The notes under the pieces were generated by a model, which saw nothing but the letters and a program-made list of their open reading frames with translations, made no database searches and was not told the DNA's origin. Made by a program: the position numbers and the translations under genes. Below are positions 39,834-46,182 of a stretch of DNA of 64,000 nt, piece by piece; position 1 is the first letter of the stretch; each line of letters opens with the position of its first letter. Source of the stretch: Candidatus Hermodarchaeota archaeon (GTDB lineage: Archaea; Asgardarchaeota; Lokiarchaeia; Sigyniarchaeales; SOKP01); contig JBHLLP010000011.1 of NCBI GenBank assembly GCA_048885525.1, positions 1,552 to 65,551 on the forward strand, given 5' to 3'.

Positions 39834-40988
39834 TTAATTTCTAGGATAAATAGCTGAATCTGGGGAAACTTCTTTTTGAAGCATTTTGAATGCTCTTTTA
39901 GAAGATGAGAAGGTCTTAGCGTTATATTTTTTAACTAATTCAACAAGTTCTTCATCAAAAACTCGTACAAACACTCGAATGAATGGATAGCGTAAATGAA
40001 TTTTTGCTGTTAGATAGAGCAATTCATCAAATTCTGAATCTTTTTTCCAACAAATGAATATCTGAGAAACATTTTCGAGATTTACGTGAGCACGTAAATC
40101 ACTTAAAAAGCGAGCGAATTCATTGATAATATGTAATCTCTCATTTACGATAAACTCGATTCCATCATTTTCGTCATCAAAAAGAAAAACCTCACGGTCT
40201 GGTTGTGTAGAGATATGATAGGCAATTCGATGAGTTAGGCTGTCACGACCAATCACAATCGCATTCCCGGTTTTATCTTTTGTCCATTTATGAATACCGT
40301 CCATTGTCCATTTCGATGTGGAAAATGGAAATGCATTTAATGGAGACGCTCTGAGATACTCTTGAACATGGTCTTCAAACGCACGTACATAAATAGGAAC
40401 TTTTGGATTCATTTTACGTATTTTTTCAGTACAAATTAACGCAACTCTAACGTCTCCAACATTAATAAAGACTTCTTTTGCTCGCTTTAAATTGGCATGA
40501 TTGAGATTAGTTATTTCAGTAGCATCGCCAACTACTATTGGTTGCCCCGCATTAATTAAATCTTCGACTGCTTCTTCATTATCTTCTATAAGACAGAAAG
40601 GTTTTTTATTTTCGATACATAATTCAATTATTCTTTTAGAAAGATGATGATATCCAATAATTACTGTGTGATTTTTCTTATGACTAGCCAAAATTCTACT
40701 TGTTATAAGGGGATTATACTTTTCCAATAATTCTCCAATTATGAAACCAAATACTATAACTTCCAATAAAATTGGCCATAGTAATGCATATAAATTCGCA
40801 AAATCACTTGCATCAGGGGGAAATCGCACAGTTAAAGAGTATAAGAAAATAATTCCAATATTTTGGCCGGACTCAGTAATAAGAAAGAAAAGAAAACCAC
40901 CAAACCAAAATAAAAATAGAAAAATAAAAGCTATCTTGTATTGCTTTAGCTTAAGCCTGAATTCAATGAAAAAGTTTACTAATTTCAT
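39834..40988 (-). CDS. 2-TM channel-like membrane protein with cytoplasmic RCK/TrkA-N domain(s); no canonical K+ filter
   Basis: Two N-terminal TM helices flank a re-entrant-like segment YSLTVRFPPDASDF. A Rossmann segment HTVIIGYHHLSKRIIELC...VVGDATE (TrkA-N) follows, and a second, similar-sized domain comes after it. Confidence 0.5.
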   Translation of the reverse strand: MKLVNFFIEFRLKLKQYKIAFIFLFLFWFGGFLFFLITESGQNIGIIFLYSLTVRFPPDASDFANLYALLWPILLEVIVFGFIIGELLEKYNPLITSRILASHKKNHTVIIGYHHLSKRIIELCIENKKPFCLIEDNEEAVEDLINAGQPIVVGDATEITNLNHANLKRAKEVFINVGDVRVALICTEKIRKMNPKVPIYVRAFEDHVQEYLRASPLNAFPFSTSKWTMDGIHKWTKDKTGNAIVIGRDSLTHRIAYHISTQPDREVFLFDDENDGIEFIVNERLHIINEFARFLSDLRAHVNLENVSQIFICWKKDSEFDELLYLTAKIHLRYPFIRVFVRVFDEELVELVKKYNAKTFSSSKRAFKMLQKEVSPDSAIYPRN

Positions 40989-41194: not shown

Positions 41195-43045
41195 TTATTG
41201 AGAATATTGAGAGTTATCAGTTTCTACAGTAATTTCTCCATTAATTTCAAGTAATTTTGAACCACAATCCTCACAATAAACGGGTATCCCGCCCAATATT
41301 TTTCTAACGAGCTCTACTGGCAAGTTTTCTCGACATTCAGGACAATTTTGTGGACTAATCGAATTTTCAAATTCAGACATAATAGAAGGAGTCATATCCT
41401 CGTCCTCAGCAAATATATCCACTTTCAAAACTGAAAATTGCTCATCTTTGTTTCCATTTAGAGTTAATAGTAATCCAACAGAATGTTTGCTAAAAGTACC
41501 TTCAGCATAACCTTTGATAAATCCATGGAATTTTCCTTCTAATTCTTCTTTTTCAGAATCAATGATTGCAAAATTTTTCCTTTTTAAAAGATTAGATAAT
41601 TTTTGGTACAATTGAATGGCATTATATGGAATTGTAAATTCTTGTCCAACTTTTTTGAATGTAAGAAGATCTTTAGTGAGATTTTCAAAATCTTCATTTG
41701 ATACTATCTTTGGTCTTAATAGTCCACATATCATTCGGATCTCATGTGGTTCTACATTGATGGTATCGATCTGATCTTTTTCATTAATAAAATTAACTAC
41801 AGCATGAACAGTTCCTTTGATACAATCTTTTTTTGGCTTAAAAACGAAAGTGGGGCTTACAAATCCTCCACCTTTTGAAATTTTGTGAAATTTTGCACTG
41901 TCTGGAGAAAATTGTGGATGTCCATCTACACGTGATAAGATTAAACTTTCCTCTGGATATGAAAGTATATTTATATTGATATTAGTAATGTTAAAGTTTC
42001 TGTTATTAATAACTTTGATCTTGAAGAGATATTCACCTCCCTCAATCTGTCCTCCCCTAAGCACTCGTATATCTGGAGATTTCACATCCGGTTCAGCTGG
42101 AATTGGGGTTGAACTAGAAACACTTTCGCCTTGGGTTGTGTTTGAAGGTTCAATAATTTGTTTAGTTTTGAGAGTTTGCGATTCTAAAGCAAATTTTTTA
42201 CTTGGCATTTCGATAAGATCGCTCTTATCACCTTTAACTAATTTGAAAAGAGAAATTTTATTTTTTGAAGCTGCTACCAAAAGTACGTTTTCTTTTTGTT
42301 CTGAAGAGATTGTATAAGTATCAAGACACTGAATTTTTACCCCTAATTTATGATTGCCAATAATCTCTTCATTTAAATTAATAGCATTTAAAAATCCGTT
42401 TTTATCACCTACAATTAAGATGGGTTGGTTATATATATTACAAAATGTTAGGCATATCGGTTGATACTGTAAGTCAAAAACCAATTCTGAATCTATATCA
42501 TTAATAACATTAAGAATTTTCCCTGATTTAAGTAAAACAAAGATTTTTTTTGTGATATCATTAGATAAATTACCGATAGTGCAATCCATGACTGGTTCAG
42601 GGGCTTTAAATTCTAAAAATTTATTTCCTTTATTATCTAGTCCAAATATTCGTTGATTTTCTAAACCAACTATAATTTCATCTCTACTATCGTCTCTTAA
42701 ATCGCCAGTTTCCATACAAATTACTGGGGAATTTAGATTTGTTGACCAGATTGGATTTCCTTTTTTATCCATTACATAGATATTTCCATCCAACGCTCCT
42801 GATATTAATTCAATATTATCTTTTTTACTTACAGATGCTATTTCGAAGCAGGTTATATTCGAAGCGAATTCAGTGTTAAAAACTTCATTACCTTTTAGAT
42901 CAAAAGCTTTCATTTCTGCATTGAATGAACATCCAATTATTTCAGGTTCTGAGTCCCCTAATAGATTTGCGATTATACAAGAATAGACAGATTTTTGAAA
43001 TTGACGTACCCAAAGTAATTGTAGTTTAATGTATTGCAATGTCAT
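41195..43045 (-). CDS. cytoplasmic beta-propeller (FG-GAP/PQQ-like blades) - S/T/P linker - beta-sandwich - alpha/beta domain - C-terminal zinc ribbon protein
   Basis: No signal peptide. Blade-like repeats are present (GDSEPEIIGCS..AFDLKGNEVF; ALDGNIYVMDKKGNPIWS; GDLRDDSRDEIIVGLENQRIFGLDNKGNKF; ILIVGDKNGFLNAINL). The linker is TTQGESVSSSTPIPAEPDVKSPD. IRVLRGGQIEGGEYLFKIKVINN marks a beta-sandwich. The ribbon is CPECREN...YCEDCGSKL. Confidence 0.6.
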   Translation of the reverse strand: MTLQYIKLQLLWVRQFQKSVYSCIIANLLGDSEPEIIGCSFNAEMKAFDLKGNEVFNTEFASNITCFEIASVSKKDNIELISGALDGNIYVMDKKGNPIWSTNLNSPVICMETGDLRDDSRDEIIVGLENQRIFGLDNKGNKFLEFKAPEPVMDCTIGNLSNDITKKIFVLLKSGKILNVINDIDSELVFDLQYQPICLTFCNIYNQPILIVGDKNGFLNAINLNEEIIGNHKLGVKIQCLDTYTISSEQKENVLLVAASKNKISLFKLVKGDKSDLIEMPSKKFALESQTLKTKQIIEPSNTTQGESVSSSTPIPAEPDVKSPDIRVLRGGQIEGGEYLFKIKVINNRNFNITNININILSYPEESLILSRVDGHPQFSPDSAKFHKISKGGGFVSPTFVFKPKKDCIKGTVHAVVNFINEKDQIDTINVEPHEIRMICGLLRPKIVSNEDFENLTKDLLTFKKVGQEFTIPYNAIQLYQKLSNLLKRKNFAIIDSEKEELEGKFHGFIKGYAEGTFSKHSVGLLLTLNGNKDEQFSVLKVDIFAEDEDMTPSIMSEFENSISPQNCPECRENLPVELVRKILGGIPVYCEDCGSKLLEINGEITVETDNSQYSQ

Positions 43046-43201: not shown

Positions 43202-43666
43202 TCATTCTGGCTTTTCTTCTACATCTTCTTTGACTTTCTTTACTAATTTTTTAAAAGCTTGTGTTAAACTACCTATTTCAGGATCTTGTTCTTCTAATTC
43301 TTTATCGAAATCTGTATCAATCTCTTGAAAAGATAGAGTTTTGAGATCGTGGGTGCATAGCTTTAAAGCAATATTTGTTAATTTATGAATTGGATTTACT
43401 ATTGAATCGGAGAGTTTCAAACCAATAAAAAGACTTATTACGATAATTTGCCATAGTGATATAAAGATTATTGCTAATTCTATCTCAAGAGTTTCAGTAA
43501 TTTTAGCTTGATCCTCAGGTGTAGCACCAACAATACTGTTACCAATAACCTCATTAAATATTGCGGCAATAATAGCAATACTCCCCAACGCTATTACACA
43601 AACTATAACGAAACTCAAAAGAATTTCTTGTCTAACCCCAAATTTTCTTTTTTTTTGTTGAACCAT
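43202..43666 (-). CDS. two-TM protein with a divergent HAMP-like cytoplasmic domain
   Basis: TM1, a short external loop (GATPEDQAKITETLE) and TM2. Then IVNPIHKLTNIALKL...DPEIGSLTQAFKKLVKKV (P-helix...EIGxLxxxF, HAMP-like). The ATG is 2 nt after the upstream stop, with GAGGAGGG in the upstream gene's last codons. Confidence 0.55.
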   Translation of the reverse strand: MVQQKKRKFGVRQEILLSFVIVCVIALGSIAIIAAIFNEVIGNSIVGATPEDQAKITETLEIELAIIFISLWQIIVISLFIGLKLSDSIVNPIHKLTNIALKLCTHDLKTLSFQEIDTDFDKELEEQDPEIGSLTQAFKKLVKKVKEDVEEKPE

Positions 43667-43668
43667 CT

Positions 43669-45393
43669 TTATCCCTCCTCTGGTACAAAACCTTCTATTT
43701 CTGATGACACCATTATTTCCTTAACCTTTGTAAAAGCATCAGCGATTCTCTTTGAAACGTTTTTAGCAGAATAAATTGTGATATATTTACCAAGTGGAGT
43801 TGCATTAACAATTTCTGTCATTTTTCGATGAACGCGTTTTAGTTCGGGTCCAACTCCAATTAAAATAATATTGAGGGGAGGCTCAACTTTTTTTATATAA
43901 TTTGCAACTTTGCGAGAATTATACTTTTTACTTTGATTATCTTCTCCATCTGTTAGAGTTACAATCCATTTCTGTCGTTCTTGAGTTTTTTGTTCTGAAA
44001 TTGGTGGTGCTCCCAATAATATATCTATTGCATTAGCTATTGCATCATATAAACTAGTTTGATAAGGTAAAAAGTCCATTTTTTTAAATATATTAGTAAT
44101 TTGCGATACATTACCTTTTTTCTCTGTTAATTTGAGATGGTTATGTACAATAGAATCAAAACCAATAATTGCAACTCTATCTCCAATGTTTATTGTTTCA
44201 TTGAAGACTCCCAAAGCTCCTGTTCGAGCTGCCCCCATTTTTCCCCACATGCCCATGCTCCCAGATTGATCAATTACAAAAACCACATCTTTTTTACGAA
44301 CCAGTACATCATCTACTTTTGAAAGTTCAAGCTCTGCTTTATGATGAAGAGTTGTATTATCCTGACTTTCATATAATTGAACCATAACTTCAAGGACATT
44401 TTTCATTAAAGGATAATTCCCAAGATTTTCTGCTAATTTCAAAGCATTTTTAAAATGATCCTCTGCAATCCCTGGATTGTTTTTTAATATATTTAGCCTC
44501 CCTAGTTGAAATTCATCTTCTGATAATCCTACATTATTTTCCCATTTACTATCAAGTCTAAATGCCTCATCAAGTTGTTCTTGAGCGAGATTCAATTCAT
44601 TTTTTAACATGTGAAGTACTCCTATATTTCTTTTTCTTGAAGCAATTCCTAACTTATCTCCCAACTCATTGTCAAGTTTAAGAGCTTTGTTAAAATCGTC
44701 CATTGCTTCTTGCCATCGTTCTTCTGAAAGAAAAAGAAGAGCACGATTGTTATATCTGGCACTTAATGCTCCAATATCCTCCTGTTCTTCACCAATTTTA
44801 ATCGCCTTATTATAACTTTTCCTTGCTTTATCAATATCACCCCAATTCCTGTAAATATTTCCAAGATTATTTAAACACATGCTCTCTCCATGAAGATTTT
44901 TTGTTGTTTGAAATAATTCTAAAGCAGCATTATAGTTTCTGAAAGCAAGCATCAAATTACCTTGATAATAACTTTTATTCCCTAAACGCATTGTAACCAA
45001 TAAACTCTGAAAAGATTGGGCAAGTACACCAATTTCATTTCTTCTCATTCTTCCACTCATAGGAATTTCTTGGGTTAAATCACCTTCAGATATTTGTTCT
45101 ATTGAATGTGTTAGCTCTATAATTGGTTTGGTTATTCTTCTGGAGATACCATTTACAGCAAAAAATATGATAATACCGGTTATAGCTGATCCAATAATGA
45201 TGGTTATGATTAAAGGGCTTTTTAAAGCTTCAAGTGAACTGTACCCTAATCCTATAAAATAGTCAATATTTGTTAAGAGTTGATACGCTAAGAAAATTGT
45301 TAAAAGTATGAAGGGGATTGAAATACAGGTAATCATAACAATGAAGAGCCGTTGTCGTAATGTTCTTCTTTTTCTTATTTTTTTAACTTCCAT
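43669..45393 (-). CDS. TM-HAMP-TPR-vWA (intact MIDAS) membrane protein
   Basis: Two TM helices. A canonical HAMP (ITKPIIELTHSIEQISEGDLTQEIP...RNEIGVLAQSFQSLL). About 6-7 TPR units (e.g. AFRNYNAALELFQ, ARKSYNKAIKI, AMDDFNKALKL, AEDHFKNALKLA). A vWA domain with VVFVIDQSGSMG (DxSxS), QTSLYDA (Thr) and TLTDGEDN (Asp). Confidence 0.75.
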   Translation of the reverse strand: MEVKKIRKRRTLRQRLFIVMITCISIPFILLTIFLAYQLLTNIDYFIGLGYSSLEALKSPLIITIIIGSAITGIIIFFAVNGISRRITKPIIELTHSIEQISEGDLTQEIPMSGRMRRNEIGVLAQSFQSLLVTMRLGNKSYYQGNLMLAFRNYNAALELFQTTKNLHGESMCLNNLGNIYRNWGDIDKARKSYNKAIKIGEEQEDIGALSARYNNRALLFLSEERWQEAMDDFNKALKLDNELGDKLGIASRKRNIGVLHMLKNELNLAQEQLDEAFRLDSKWENNVGLSEDEFQLGRLNILKNNPGIAEDHFKNALKLAENLGNYPLMKNVLEVMVQLYESQDNTTLHHKAELELSKVDDVLVRKKDVVFVIDQSGSMGMWGKMGAARTGALGVFNETINIGDRVAIIGFDSIVHNHLKLTEKKGNVSQITNIFKKMDFLPYQTSLYDAIANAIDILLGAPPISEQKTQERQKWIVTLTDGEDNQSKKYNSRKVANYIKKVEPPLNIILIGVGPELKRVHRKMTEIVNATPLGKYITIYSAKNVSKRIADAFTKVKEIMVSSEIEGFVPEEG

Positions 45394-45426: not shown

Positions 45427-46182
45427 TTAAACTCCCTTGTCTATTCCTTCATATATTAGAAAGATCGATGTAAAAATAGAAGCTTTAACAATAGCTAAAC
45501 CAATCAATGGCATATCAGAAACACCTGCATCAATGATTCCAAAAAGAGAAACAAACATTATACCTAATCCCATTGAATATCTCCTCCATTTAGCGGTTTT
45601 ATCCTCGAGTTTTGACCCAGATTGAAGAATAGCCGGTCCTAAGATTACCATCATAATAACCAGCACCACCCCCAATAATGCCAATGCCAAACCTTTAATC
45701 CCTGTAGATGGTAAACCTCCACCTATTTCCTCGGATGGTTTCCAGGAAGTATATGTTGAAGGATTGGAATAAATTAAAATAGCGAAAATTATACTCACTA
45801 TTCCTACTATGCCTGTAATTGGGATTTTATAACGACCTTCTTTAAACAAATCTGAAGCTATATATGCCCAAATGGTTGCACCTAAAGCAGGACCCCAAGC
45901 ATATCCAAGAACGCCGATATTTGGATCACCATCCGGATACCCTAATGGAGGAAAACCGAAAATCATTAATAAAAAACTTGCAGAGACTCCAAACCAAGCG
46001 TGAAAAACGGAGATTAAACCAATTCCACTTAATATTAATCTTTTTTTAACTTTTATATCAGTTGCTTTTCTAGCATGCTTAAAAATGAGGATAAAAGCTA
46101 ATATATAACCAGCGGCAATAATTTCAAGACCTGTGAGTCCATTTATTATATCAATATTTGGAAGAACCATATATGTTAACAC
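45427..46182 (-). CDS. polytopic (about 7-TM) hypothetical membrane protein
   Basis: 251 aa with about seven hydrophobic helices and no recognisable motif. Its stop lies 33 nt upstream of the HAMP-TPR-vWA gene start, on the same strand. Confidence 0.5.
   Translation of the reverse strand: MLTYMVLPNIDIINGLTGLEIIAAGYILAFILIFKHARKATDIKVKKRLILSGIGLISVFHAWFGVSASFLLMIFGFPPLGYPDGDPNIGVLGYAWGPALGATIWAYIASDLFKEGRYKIPITGIVGIVSIIFAILIYSNPSTYTSWKPSEEIGGGLPSTGIKGLALALLGVVLVIMMVILGPAILQSGSKLEDKTAKWRRYSMGLGIMFVSLFGIIDAGVSDMPLIGLAIVKASIFTSIFLIYEGIDKGV

Follow-up and report, generated by a model that had tools for sequence, protein, structure and literature searches.

Most prokaryotic FG-GAP proteins are extracytoplasmic. 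The window considered here, a stretch of 64,000 nucleotides from a Candidatus Hermodarchaeota archaeon, contains on its minus strand (41195..43045) an open reading frame whose product of 616 residues was described in an initial annotation as an FG-GAP-like propeller devoid of a signal peptide, fused to a beta-sandwich, an alpha/beta module and a terminal zinc ribbon. The question raised by this locus is what such a propeller could be doing inside the cell, and with which partners.

Domain architecture of the propeller protein

Homologues of this protein form about 80 clusters of roughly 600 amino acids, exclusively in Asgard archaea, and M1, W12 and all four cysteines are invariant in a 24-sequence alignment. 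Such conservation shows that the gene is genuine and its start codon correctly assigned. The protein begins with MTLQYIKLQLLW and carries the motifs CPEC (568-571) and CEDC (591-594) close to the C-terminus. No hydrophobic segment was found, the Kyte-Doolittle mean over 19 residues peaking at 0.95 versus 2.7-3.0 in the neighbouring membrane proteins, and in the AlphaFold2 model residues 5-15 constitute a strand of the propeller and not a leader. Hydropathy, which predicts neither a signal peptide nor a transmembrane (TM) segment, agrees with the proposal that the protein is probably cytoplasmic. Judged from its sequence, the product of 41195..43045 is a soluble cytoplasmic protein without leader or TM segment. 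The model distributes the chain into 24 strands (residues 5-272), a disordered stretch (282-323), a sandwich (326-439), an alpha/beta module (453-561) and a zinc ribbon (565-607). The open reading frame, the conserved homologues and the model are thus in agreement with the series of domains initially described.

The propeller (residues 1-275; 42221..43045, minus strand) is six-bladed and, by its Pfam matches, of the FG-GAP/BBS-ITFG2 type. It contains 24 DSSP strands and, in register, six repeats each about 44 residues long, in which the FG-GAP-like motif quoted in the initial annotation recurs; it is from sequence and from secondary structure that six blades are counted. The last blade is probably completed by the N-terminal strand (residues 5-15). 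The propellers of BBS proteins, ITFG2 and integrins have seven blades, and ITFG2 is not known to possess an ear or a zinc ribbon. With respect to Pfam, the propeller matches Beta-prop_BBS7 (30.9 bits, cut-off 27) and PHTB1_N (29.2 bits, cut-off 28.6), matches that overlap others of similar strength to ACSF4, CGLA, Itfg2 and IFT propellers; those to BBS2_Mid and Itfg2 are below threshold. Searches of PDB sequences, with the single sequence or with profiles, yielded weak matches only, the best hit of the family profile being ITFG2 (E 3.7e-4), with BBS1 at E 0.011.

When the full-length model was compared with the PDB using Foldseek, the nine best matches were BBS9, BBS7, BBS2 and BBS1 (E 6e-17 to 5e-13), in alignments spanning 530-700 columns. 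The architecture, which had not been recognised at the outset, therefore matches the BBSome by fold and domain order, though secure membership by sequence was not obtained. This goes part of the way towards the refuting case named in the initial annotation, a full-length match to a characterised family.

Between propeller and sandwich lies a disordered hinge rich in S, T, P and E (residues 276-323; 42077..42220, minus strand). Its pLDDT in the AlphaFold2 model is below 50 over residues 282-323, and its mean pairwise identity in the family is 22%, versus 55-73% for the folded domains. A flexible hinge of this sort is a property of adaptin/COPI appendage domains.

The ear and its mobile cassette

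The hinge is followed by an Ig-like, GAE-like beta-sandwich (residues 324-445; 41711..42076, minus strand), delimited from an ear-only model and Foldseek, and by an alpha/beta platform of TBP/helix-grip-like type (residues 446-563; 41357..41710, minus strand), delimited by Foldseek. No other part of the protein is as well conserved as the sandwich (73% mean identity). Sandwich residues D407-C408 and C440 are invariant in 25 diverse cassettes, which also share the motifs NF..., G.AEGKY and D..M.P.

An AlphaFold2 model of the sandwich and the alpha/beta module alone reached a pLDDT of 89. Its 13 best Foldseek matches are the ears of beta-COP, AP2 alpha, AP2 beta2 and gamma-COP (E 3.6e-11 to 5e-7), and these alignments span 245-259 columns, covering sandwich and platform together; for beta-COP the TM-score is 0.73 and the rmsd 3.6 A over 253 columns. 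BBS7 appears at rank 22 (E 2e-4). Since the segment co-aligns with two-subdomain appendages, its alpha/beta part corresponds to the platform subdomain of an adaptin-type ear. As modelled, the sandwich and the alpha/beta module are an adaptin/COPI-type appendage (ear). The Ig-like unit that had been proposed after the linker is thus seen as a sandwich in the model. The Roadblock- or longin-like fold that had been considered for the next segment gave way to an appendage platform: no Roadblock/LC7 or longin structure is present among the 50 best ear-only Foldseek matches for residues 446-563.

At the sequence level the relationship is fainter. The cassette profile gave a sub-threshold match to residues 826-911 of beta-COP (E about 0.1) among PDB sequences, and GAE_BBS1 was sub-threshold in three of the 25 cassette relatives (best E 0.0097). 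Neither Alpha_adaptinC2, B2-adapt-app_C nor the COPI ear models were listed at E values up to 1 for the protein or the 25 relatives. The ears of beta-COP, gamma-COP, and AP2 alpha- and beta2-adaptin (PDB 9QPQ_H, 1PZD, 1B9K, 1E42) also consist of two subdomains placed after a disordered hinge. However, they sit on the HEAT/ARM trunk of a heterotetramer, whereas the ear described here sits on a propeller and has a zinc ribbon added.

This C4 zinc ribbon (residues 564-607; 41225..41356, minus strand) is built around C568, C571, C591 and C594. The CxxC...CxxC pattern is invariant among relatives, as anticipated for a terminal ribbon, and Pfam Zn_ribbon_9 matches 11 of the 25 cassettes. Of the 76 Thorarchaeota genomes that were searched, 72 contain ear and zinc ribbon together, usually in the form of a tail immediately inside the membrane. 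In relatives that are surface proteins, the cassette follows the last TM helix, on the opposite side from the extracellular domains. The ear cassette occurs in fusion with over 100 other architectures in Asgard archaea, where ear plus zinc ribbon is a widespread, mobile and promiscuous unit. For this reason, the presence of the ear says little about the pathway in which this protein acts. Only one strong copy of the cassette exists in the genome of origin and, therefore, there is no local array of paralogues. A locus search with a narrower cassette alignment retrieved almost only Thorarchaeota records, with a few from Promethearchaeota or labelled 'uncultured archaeon', and homologue searches (word index) by ear region or by cassette-only protein added almost no diversity.

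Neighbouring genes and proposed function

Upstream of the propeller gene, and on the same strand, lie three genes for membrane proteins, called here N1, N2 and N3. N1 (45427..46182, minus strand), the first gene of the cluster, encodes a multi-pass membrane protein of 251 amino acids, as deduced from hydropathy. It has no family match in Pfam, PADLOC or NCBIfam, and orthologues (E 1e-111 to 1e-115) at the corresponding position were seen in the close subfamily alone (loci L001 and L005). N2 (43669..45393, minus strand; 574 amino acids) contains two TM helices followed by HAMP, TPR and VWA domains (Pfam HAMP, TPR_12 and VWA). The MIDAS of its VWA domain is complete, DxSxS...T...D (D375, S377 and S379 in N2) being kept in all six aligned orthologues, and the TPR and VWA domains are the sole output domains of N2. 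N3 (43202..43666, minus strand; 154 amino acids) has two TM helices, predicted by hydropathy, and a weak HAMP match. The cytoplasmic parts comprise residues about 85-574 of N2 and about 88-154 of N3. In sister subfamilies N3 is a protein of about 510 amino acids with dCache and HAMP domains, and dCache ligand sensors are found in both N2 and N3; in the close, Loki-type versions of the two proteins the extracytoplasmic loops are only short. The idea of an N2/N3 HAMP heterodimer finds no support in the sequences, as N3 is not a detectable paralogue of the N2 N-terminus (BLASTP E 0.049, Loki-type operon). A known conflict or defence system was also discarded, because PADLOC and NCBIfam returned neither a defence system nor a named family for the four genes.

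The association of these genes is strict. In 17 of 17 loci (that of the window included), which cover three subfamilies at 40-85% identity, the propeller gene is immediately preceded by a co-oriented N3 orthologue, and N2 was found in every examined locus that extends far enough upstream. The genes flanking the cluster vary between subfamilies. A survey of 121 genomes belonging to the same family found N2 in 16 and the propeller in 15, both on one contig in 14; the three mismatches all fall at contig ends. The module is thus patchy (about 13% of related genomes), and its function therefore accessory. The propeller gene is separated from N3 by 156 nucleotides, so it may have its own promoter. 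Among the variants of the operon the propeller is constant and the C-terminal end is swapped: it can be the ear and zinc ribbon, a winged-helix-like domain, or the zinc ribbon alone, and ear-less variants retain the operon.

The constant adjacency to two membrane sensor genes points to a probable cytoplasmic adaptor of an archaeal signalling module. On balance, we favour, with moderate confidence, the view that the protein is a soluble adaptor or scaffold subunit of a conserved membrane-signalling module of Asgard archaea. The propeller would dock on the TPR/VWA arm that the receptor pair extends into the cytoplasm, by analogy with the propellers of BBS1 and BBS9 upon the TPR superhelices of BBS4 and BBS8, and signals transmitted through the HAMP domains would alter this docking. 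The ear and zinc ribbon, placed on a flexible hinge, could be the recruiting or dimerising end. The pockets of adaptin and COPI ears, in platform and sandwich, bind short linear motifs of the FxDxF, DPF/W and FxxxW types; like adaptin ears or BBS GAE domains, the archaeal ear might bind short motifs or other ear-bearing proteins. In this way a signal from outside the cell or from the membrane may lead, through the module, to assembly of a protein complex at the membrane instead of to phosphorylation. For the BBSome, propeller-TPR docking and GAE-GAE dimerisation have been described (PMC7018512).

Comparison with known adaptors

Among the nearest known systems, the BBSome subunits BBS1, BBS2, BBS7 and BBS9 (PDB 6VBU, 6XT9) share with this protein an N-terminal FG-GAP-like propeller, a linker, a GAE-type sandwich and a platform. 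BBSome subunits partner TPR proteins and handle membrane receptors (PMC7018512), and the operon described here encodes a TPR protein and receptors. However, this protein differs from BBS2, BBS7 and BBS9 by the lack of a coiled coil and of a C-terminal helical domain, instead of which it carries a zinc ribbon. In place of Arl6, BBS4, BBS8, BBS5 and BBS18, its putative partners comprise a VWA domain and HAMP/dCache receptors. No specific similarity to BBS4 or BBS8 was found in the TPR protein of the operon. ITFG2 of KICSTOR (PDB 9V9N and others) is also a cytoplasmic FG-GAP-type propeller; it aligns with the propeller part only, at a TM-score of about 0.5.

Appendage domains have already been reported in Asgard archaea (Eme 2023, PMC10307638; Makarova 2024, 10.1101/2024.02.06.579148). 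According to the accessible parts of both sources, these 'adaptin appendage region' proteins carry a similar cassette with IG-like and TBP-like parts and often a zinc ribbon, either standalone or fused to Vps28-C, longin, TPR, GOLD and similar domains in an ESCRT context; the adaptin appendage is described as an interaction hub (10.1101/2024.02.06.579148). The same parts do not mention a fusion to a BBS/ITFG2-type propeller or a HAMP-TPR-VWA operon. A 2026 preprint mentions a BBS7/ITFG2-like Asgard cluster (10.64898/2026.10.28.762692), and the main text of Kostlbacher 2026 mentions neither BBS, propeller nor adaptin. No published description was found of the propeller-hinge-ear fusion itself, nor of its strict operon with TM-HAMP-TPR-VWA and TM-(dCache)-HAMP proteins.

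The protein could be a true relative of the BBSome core (BBS1/2/7/9) on an archaeal stem, that is, a coat-like cargo adaptor which sorts membrane receptors, with the TPR protein of the operon akin to BBS4/BBS8. The shared order of propeller, flexible linker, GAE-like sandwich and platform, the nine best full-length structural matches, the Pfam BBS7 and BBS9 propeller models slightly exceeding their cut-offs, the TPR protein and membrane receptors encoded alongside, and the 'BBS7/ITFG2' structural cluster, exclusive to Asgard archaea and eukaryotes in the preprint cited above, are all consistent with this. Such a relationship is nevertheless unlikely. The propeller has six blades and not seven, coiled coil and helical domain are missing, and the ear alone is much nearer to COPI and AP2 ears than to BBS7. 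Furthermore, the sequence signals are marginal (1-4 bits over cut-off) and overlap those of other propeller families, the distribution in Lokiarchaeia is patchy, and independent assembly is easily possible with so promiscuous an ear cassette, which makes convergence plausible. Common ancestry with the BBSome is, therefore, unproven. A bolder extension holds that the three conserved genes form a prokaryotic receptor-adaptor machine, in which the TPR-VWA arm of ligand-gated dCache/HAMP receptors recruits the propeller-hinge-ear protein, which in turn dimerises or recruits partners at the membrane, and that this pairing of TPR and propeller-ear was the source of the BBSome core (BBS4/8 with BBS1/2/7/9). 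We consider it less likely still; if true, a receptor-sorting adaptor would be older than cilia.

A different proposal leaves the neighbours aside: the protein would be one of the Asgard appendage proteins for which Makarova et al. suggest a role as ESCRT-0-like cargo adaptors, whose propeller binds cargo and whose ear and zinc ribbon provide a link to ESCRT and ubiquitin. It draws on relatives in which the cassette is joined to an EAP30/Vps36-family ESCRT-II domain (P0116) or to HEAT repeats (P0148), and on the study of Makarova et al. (10.1101/2024.02.06.579148), which ties Asgard appendage regions to Vps28-C, longin and zinc ribbons, and propeller-plus-IG proteins of Halobacteria to ESCRT loci. 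Yet no gene for ESCRT, the ubiquitin system or a GTPase adjoins the propeller gene in any examined locus, the strict linkage is with HAMP proteins instead, and the operon is kept when the ear is lost, so this proposal is as doubtful as kinship with the BBSome core. An extracytoplasmic propeller protein of FG-GAP/PQQ type (adhesin, BamB-like factor or PQQ enzyme) is suggested by the blade motif, and by weak matches to ACSF4, a PQQ-like propeller (E 3e-9 and 37 bits, where the cut-off is 133), and to BamB (19.6 bits, where it is 423). This reading is extremely improbable given the lack of signal peptide and TM segment, the many conserved cysteines, the C4 zinc ribbon, the cytoplasmic-type ear and the position of the cassette across the membrane from extracellular domains in relatives; the extracellular FG-GAP, PQQ-enzyme and BamB assignments were set aside because of topology and scores far below cut-off.

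The role of cytoplasmic adaptor in a membrane-signalling module is the reading retained. How much weight the finding can bear is limited by the promiscuous nature of the cassette and by the patchy occurrence of the module, and the interaction with N2 and N3 is putative, being drawn by analogy. Asgard archaea are a search ground for the forerunners of the eukaryotic trafficking machinery. Ears and BBS/ITFG2-like propellers had previously been listed apart; here they occur in one chain, in the domain order of the BBSome, and the gene is genetically locked to membrane receptors and a TPR-VWA protein. In this module, HAMP signalling may have as its output the assembly of proteins (TPR/VWA) and not a kinase, chemoreceptor or cyclase; we know of no described HAMP pathway with such an output. 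As a system of three or four genes that can be expressed in the laboratory, it could reveal what an archaeal "adaptor ear" binds, and would permit a test of whether propeller-TPR docking is older than eukaryotes.

Gene context of the propeller protein

The propeller gene (41195..43045, minus strand) was recovered in the open reading frame listing of the window, whose G+C content is about 30%, and its translation has 616 residues. A search of 5.8 billion proteins returned homologues in about 80 clusters; almost all are about 600 residues long and unnamed, and the labels, where given, are Lokiarchaeota, Promethearchaeota, Hermodarchaeota or Thorarchaeota. Across 24 aligned members (40-85% identity), M1, W12, C568, C571, C591 and C594 never vary, which shows that the start and the CxxC...CxxC at the C-terminus are genuine. 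The CPEC...CEDC pair described in the initial annotation is thus confirmed by four cysteines kept in 24/24 members, and its view of a probably cytoplasmic protein without a hydrophobic leader also holds, since no hydrophobic stretch is present (maximum 19-residue hydropathy, 0.95). Clear transmembrane (TM) helices are found by hydropathy in the three upstream neighbours.

Four co-directional genes on the minus strand end with the propeller gene. The first (45427..46182) encodes a multi-pass membrane protein of 251 aa, the second (43669..45393) is N2, a TM-TM-HAMP-TPR-VWA protein of 574 aa, and the third (43202..43666) is N3, a TM-TM-HAMP protein of 154 aa that is separated from the propeller gene by 156 nt. 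None of the four has a family match in PADLOC or NCBIfam. When 17 loci from three subfamilies, including that of the window (L008), were compared, an N3 orthologue was located directly upstream of the propeller gene and on the same strand in all of them, and an N2 orthologue preceded N3 at every locus whose DNA extends far enough. The flanks differ among most of these loci, but a few close relatives have downstream genes in common. The VWA MIDAS motif (DxSxS, T, D) is kept in the six N2 orthologues aligned.

Within the window's own family (121 genomes), N2 is present in 16 genomes and the propeller in 15; both occur in 14, on the same contig and a few kb apart, and all three mismatches (G240, G328 and G255) fall at contig ends. 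Neither gene was found in the remaining 104 genomes, and the module is thus accessory and patchy, yet inherited as a unit, the 121 genomes being related rather than independent.

The Loki-type N2 and N3 have just 10-15 residues or so between their two TM helices, and therefore no sensor domain. dCache sensor domains have been gained by both HAMP proteins of the more distant subfamilies, and are complete in the sister-subfamily orthologues. The 251-aa multi-pass protein has been seen only with the sensor-less HAMP type, to which it may supply input. Synteny of a channel-like TrkA_N (RCK) gene downstream of the propeller gene (39834-40988, minus strand) is confined to the closest relatives (L007 and L014), which makes its membership of the module improbable; a different subfamily (L006, L079 and L080) has a pyruvoyl-dependent arginine decarboxylase gene after the propeller. 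Two orthologues contain in-frame stops, one TAA at L007 (G255:C64) and one TAG plus one TAA at L015 (G165:C241). Decay of these copies or errors in assembly could explain the stops, which are consistent with the patchy distribution of the module.

Domain architecture and structural relatives

A full-length AlphaFold2 model built with the family alignment (mean pLDDT 75) divides the protein into a propeller region of 24 β-strands (residues 5-272), a disordered hinge (282-323), a β-sandwich (326-439), an α/β module or platform (453-561) and a small zinc ribbon (565-607). The N-terminal part is built of six repeats in register, each about 44 residues long and bearing the FG-GAP-like blade motif already quoted in the initial annotation. 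From sequence and secondary structure, it would form a six-bladed propeller whose ring is closed by the N-terminal strand. Mean identity is highest in the sandwich (73%), followed by the platform (59%), propeller (55%), zinc ribbon (53%) and hinge (22%).

The propeller scores weakly, above the cut-off, against Pfam Beta-prop_BBS7 (30.9 bits, cut-off 27) and PHTB1_N/BBS9 (29.2 bits, cut-off 28.6), with sub-threshold matches to BBS2_Mid, Itfg2 and several other propeller families. Against PDB sequences, the family profile finds ITFG2 (E 3.7e-4) and BBS1 (E 0.011). In Foldseek comparisons of the full-length model with the PDB, ranks 1-9 are occupied by BBS9, BBS7, BBS2 and BBS1 (E 5.8e-17 to 5.2e-13; 530-700 aligned columns), while IFT-A, DDB1, COPI β-prime, ITFG2 and ordinary WD40 proteins rank below them.

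Residues 320-616 were also modelled without the propeller, using a deeper, 39-row alignment that includes Thorarchaeota and Helarchaeota relatives (pLDDT 89, pTM 0.73). Appendage domains with two subdomains fill the first 13 places among its PDB matches, headed by β-COP (E 3.6e-11, TM-score 0.73, rmsd 3.6 Å, 253 columns) and followed by AP2 α, AP2 β2 and γ-COP; BBS7 appears at rank 22 (E 2e-4). The α/β segment had been suspected to be Roadblock- or longin-like, a proposal that gains no support, no such fold being found in the top 50 matches. These matches indicate that the sandwich and α/β module are the two halves of a predicted adaptin/COPI-type ear. The ear is barely visible in sequence: the profile reaches β-COP 826-911 at an E of about 0.1, and GAE_BBS1 matches 3 of 25 relatives of the ear and zinc ribbon.

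The ear and zinc ribbon as a mobile cassette

Searched with the family profile, 1.84 billion representatives yielded 1909 proteins at E up to 1e-3; most of them match only profile positions ~320-600, at the C-terminus of chains of 260 to 2870 aa. TM helices precede this ear and zinc ribbon cassette in most of 123 representatives, often just 20-60 residues upstream; some carry two tandem cassettes, and in others a different C-terminal domain replaces the zinc ribbon. Fusion partners include FG-GAP/Big surface proteins, SBBP and WD40 propellers, HEAT repeats and an EAP30/Vps36 ESCRT-II domain. For instance, the cassette is joined to HEAT repeats in P0148, as an adaptin-like trunk plus ear, and to EAP30/Vps36 in P0116, and it is the cytoplasmic tail, directly after the last TM helix, of the giant FG-GAP/Big, SBBP and WD40 surface proteins P0090, P0112 and P0106. 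In the β-sandwich of the ear (41711-42076, minus strand), the Asp-Cys pair D407-C408 (KDC.xG) and a second cysteine, C440 (xxC.LL), are invariant in 25/25 very diverse cassette proteins (26-52% identity to the propeller protein). Such conservation is uncommon in Ig-like domains of the cytoplasm and might mark a metal or redox site, or else a core that is tightly packed.

In a survey of 301 genomes from the phylum, one family possesses the cassette in 72 of its 76 genomes, often in tandem gene arrays. This family is probably Thorarchaeota, since a separate scan of named genome records with the same cassette type returned almost only Thorarchaeota, and its arrays are a large lineage-specific expansion. 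Arrays of at least three genes are found, for example, at G275:C15:183007-188045, G087:C18:43174-47344 and G140:C2:25737-30701. In the genome of the window itself, the cassette occurs as one strong copy and a second, very divergent one. Outside the window, this genome encodes a standalone, very divergent sandwich, α/β module and zinc ribbon (C6:37125-38114, plus strand, 329 aa) and two further cytoplasmic FG-GAP/ITFG2-like propellers, one alone (C8:89962-91086, minus strand, 374 aa) and one with an acidic/Lys-rich, winged-helix-like tail (C58:10402-12072, plus strand, 556 aa).

The mobile cassette matches two published reports. Eme et al. 2023 (PMC10307638) found Asgard adaptin ear domains that were "not fused to each other", and Makarova et al. 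2024 (10.1101/2024.02.06.579148) described, for Asgard as well as other archaea, "adaptin appendage regions" that are IG-like plus TBP-like, frequently carry zinc ribbons and are viewed as interaction hubs linked to ESCRT. A "BBS7/ITFG2" structural cluster of Asgard archaea and eukaryotes is mentioned in a single line of a 2026 preprint (10.64898/2026.10.28.762692) and was matched to the Kostlbacher 2026 catalogue. Asgard ears and this cluster are known already. The searchable literature gave no description of the propeller-hinge-ear-zinc ribbon chain as a BBS-like architecture, nor of an operon joining it to HAMP/dCache receptors and to a TPR-VWA output.

Origin and possible role of the propeller protein

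A true BBSome ancestry would fit the order of the domains, the ranking of the structural matches and the presence of a TPR partner. However, the blades number six (as inferred), coiled coil and helical domains are absent, the ear resembles those of COPI and AP2 more than those of BBS proteins, and the cassette is so promiscuous that convergence would be easy; we regard such descent as unlikely. An ESCRT-0-like adaptor acting independently of the neighbouring genes is suggested by cassettes fused elsewhere to ESCRT-II domains but is at odds with the gene context at these loci, and appears equally doubtful. An extracytoplasmic FG-GAP or PQQ protein, rejected for its topology, is hardly credible.

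Some relatives lack the ear: P0077 and P0088 consist of propeller, linker and a winged-helix-like domain, and P0086 and P0087 of propeller and zinc ribbon alone. Upstream context was taken from P0077 (L006) and P0076 (L080). Both sit behind dCache-HAMP genes, with a full N2 and N3 pair annotated for P0077 and the gene at the N2 position cut by the contig end for P0076. Since these genes are kept while C-termini are swapped, what stays constant is the propeller with the HAMP proteins, and what is exchanged is the C-terminal module.

Five points are taken as established: what the domains are, that the protein is cytoplasmic, that the genes are strictly linked, that the MIDAS site is intact and that the C-terminus is exchangeable. 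From these, we propose with moderate confidence that the propeller protein is a receptor-docked adaptor. The BBSome offers a comparison: its BBS1 and BBS9 propellers attach to BBS4 and BBS8 at the ends of their TPR superhelices, and its GAE domains pair with one another (PMC7018512). By analogy with this precedent, the propeller would dock onto the receptor pair at its cytoplasmic TPR/VWA arm, HAMP signaling might modulate this docking, and the ear and zinc ribbon, on their flexible hinge, may recruit other proteins at the membrane or dimerise with them.
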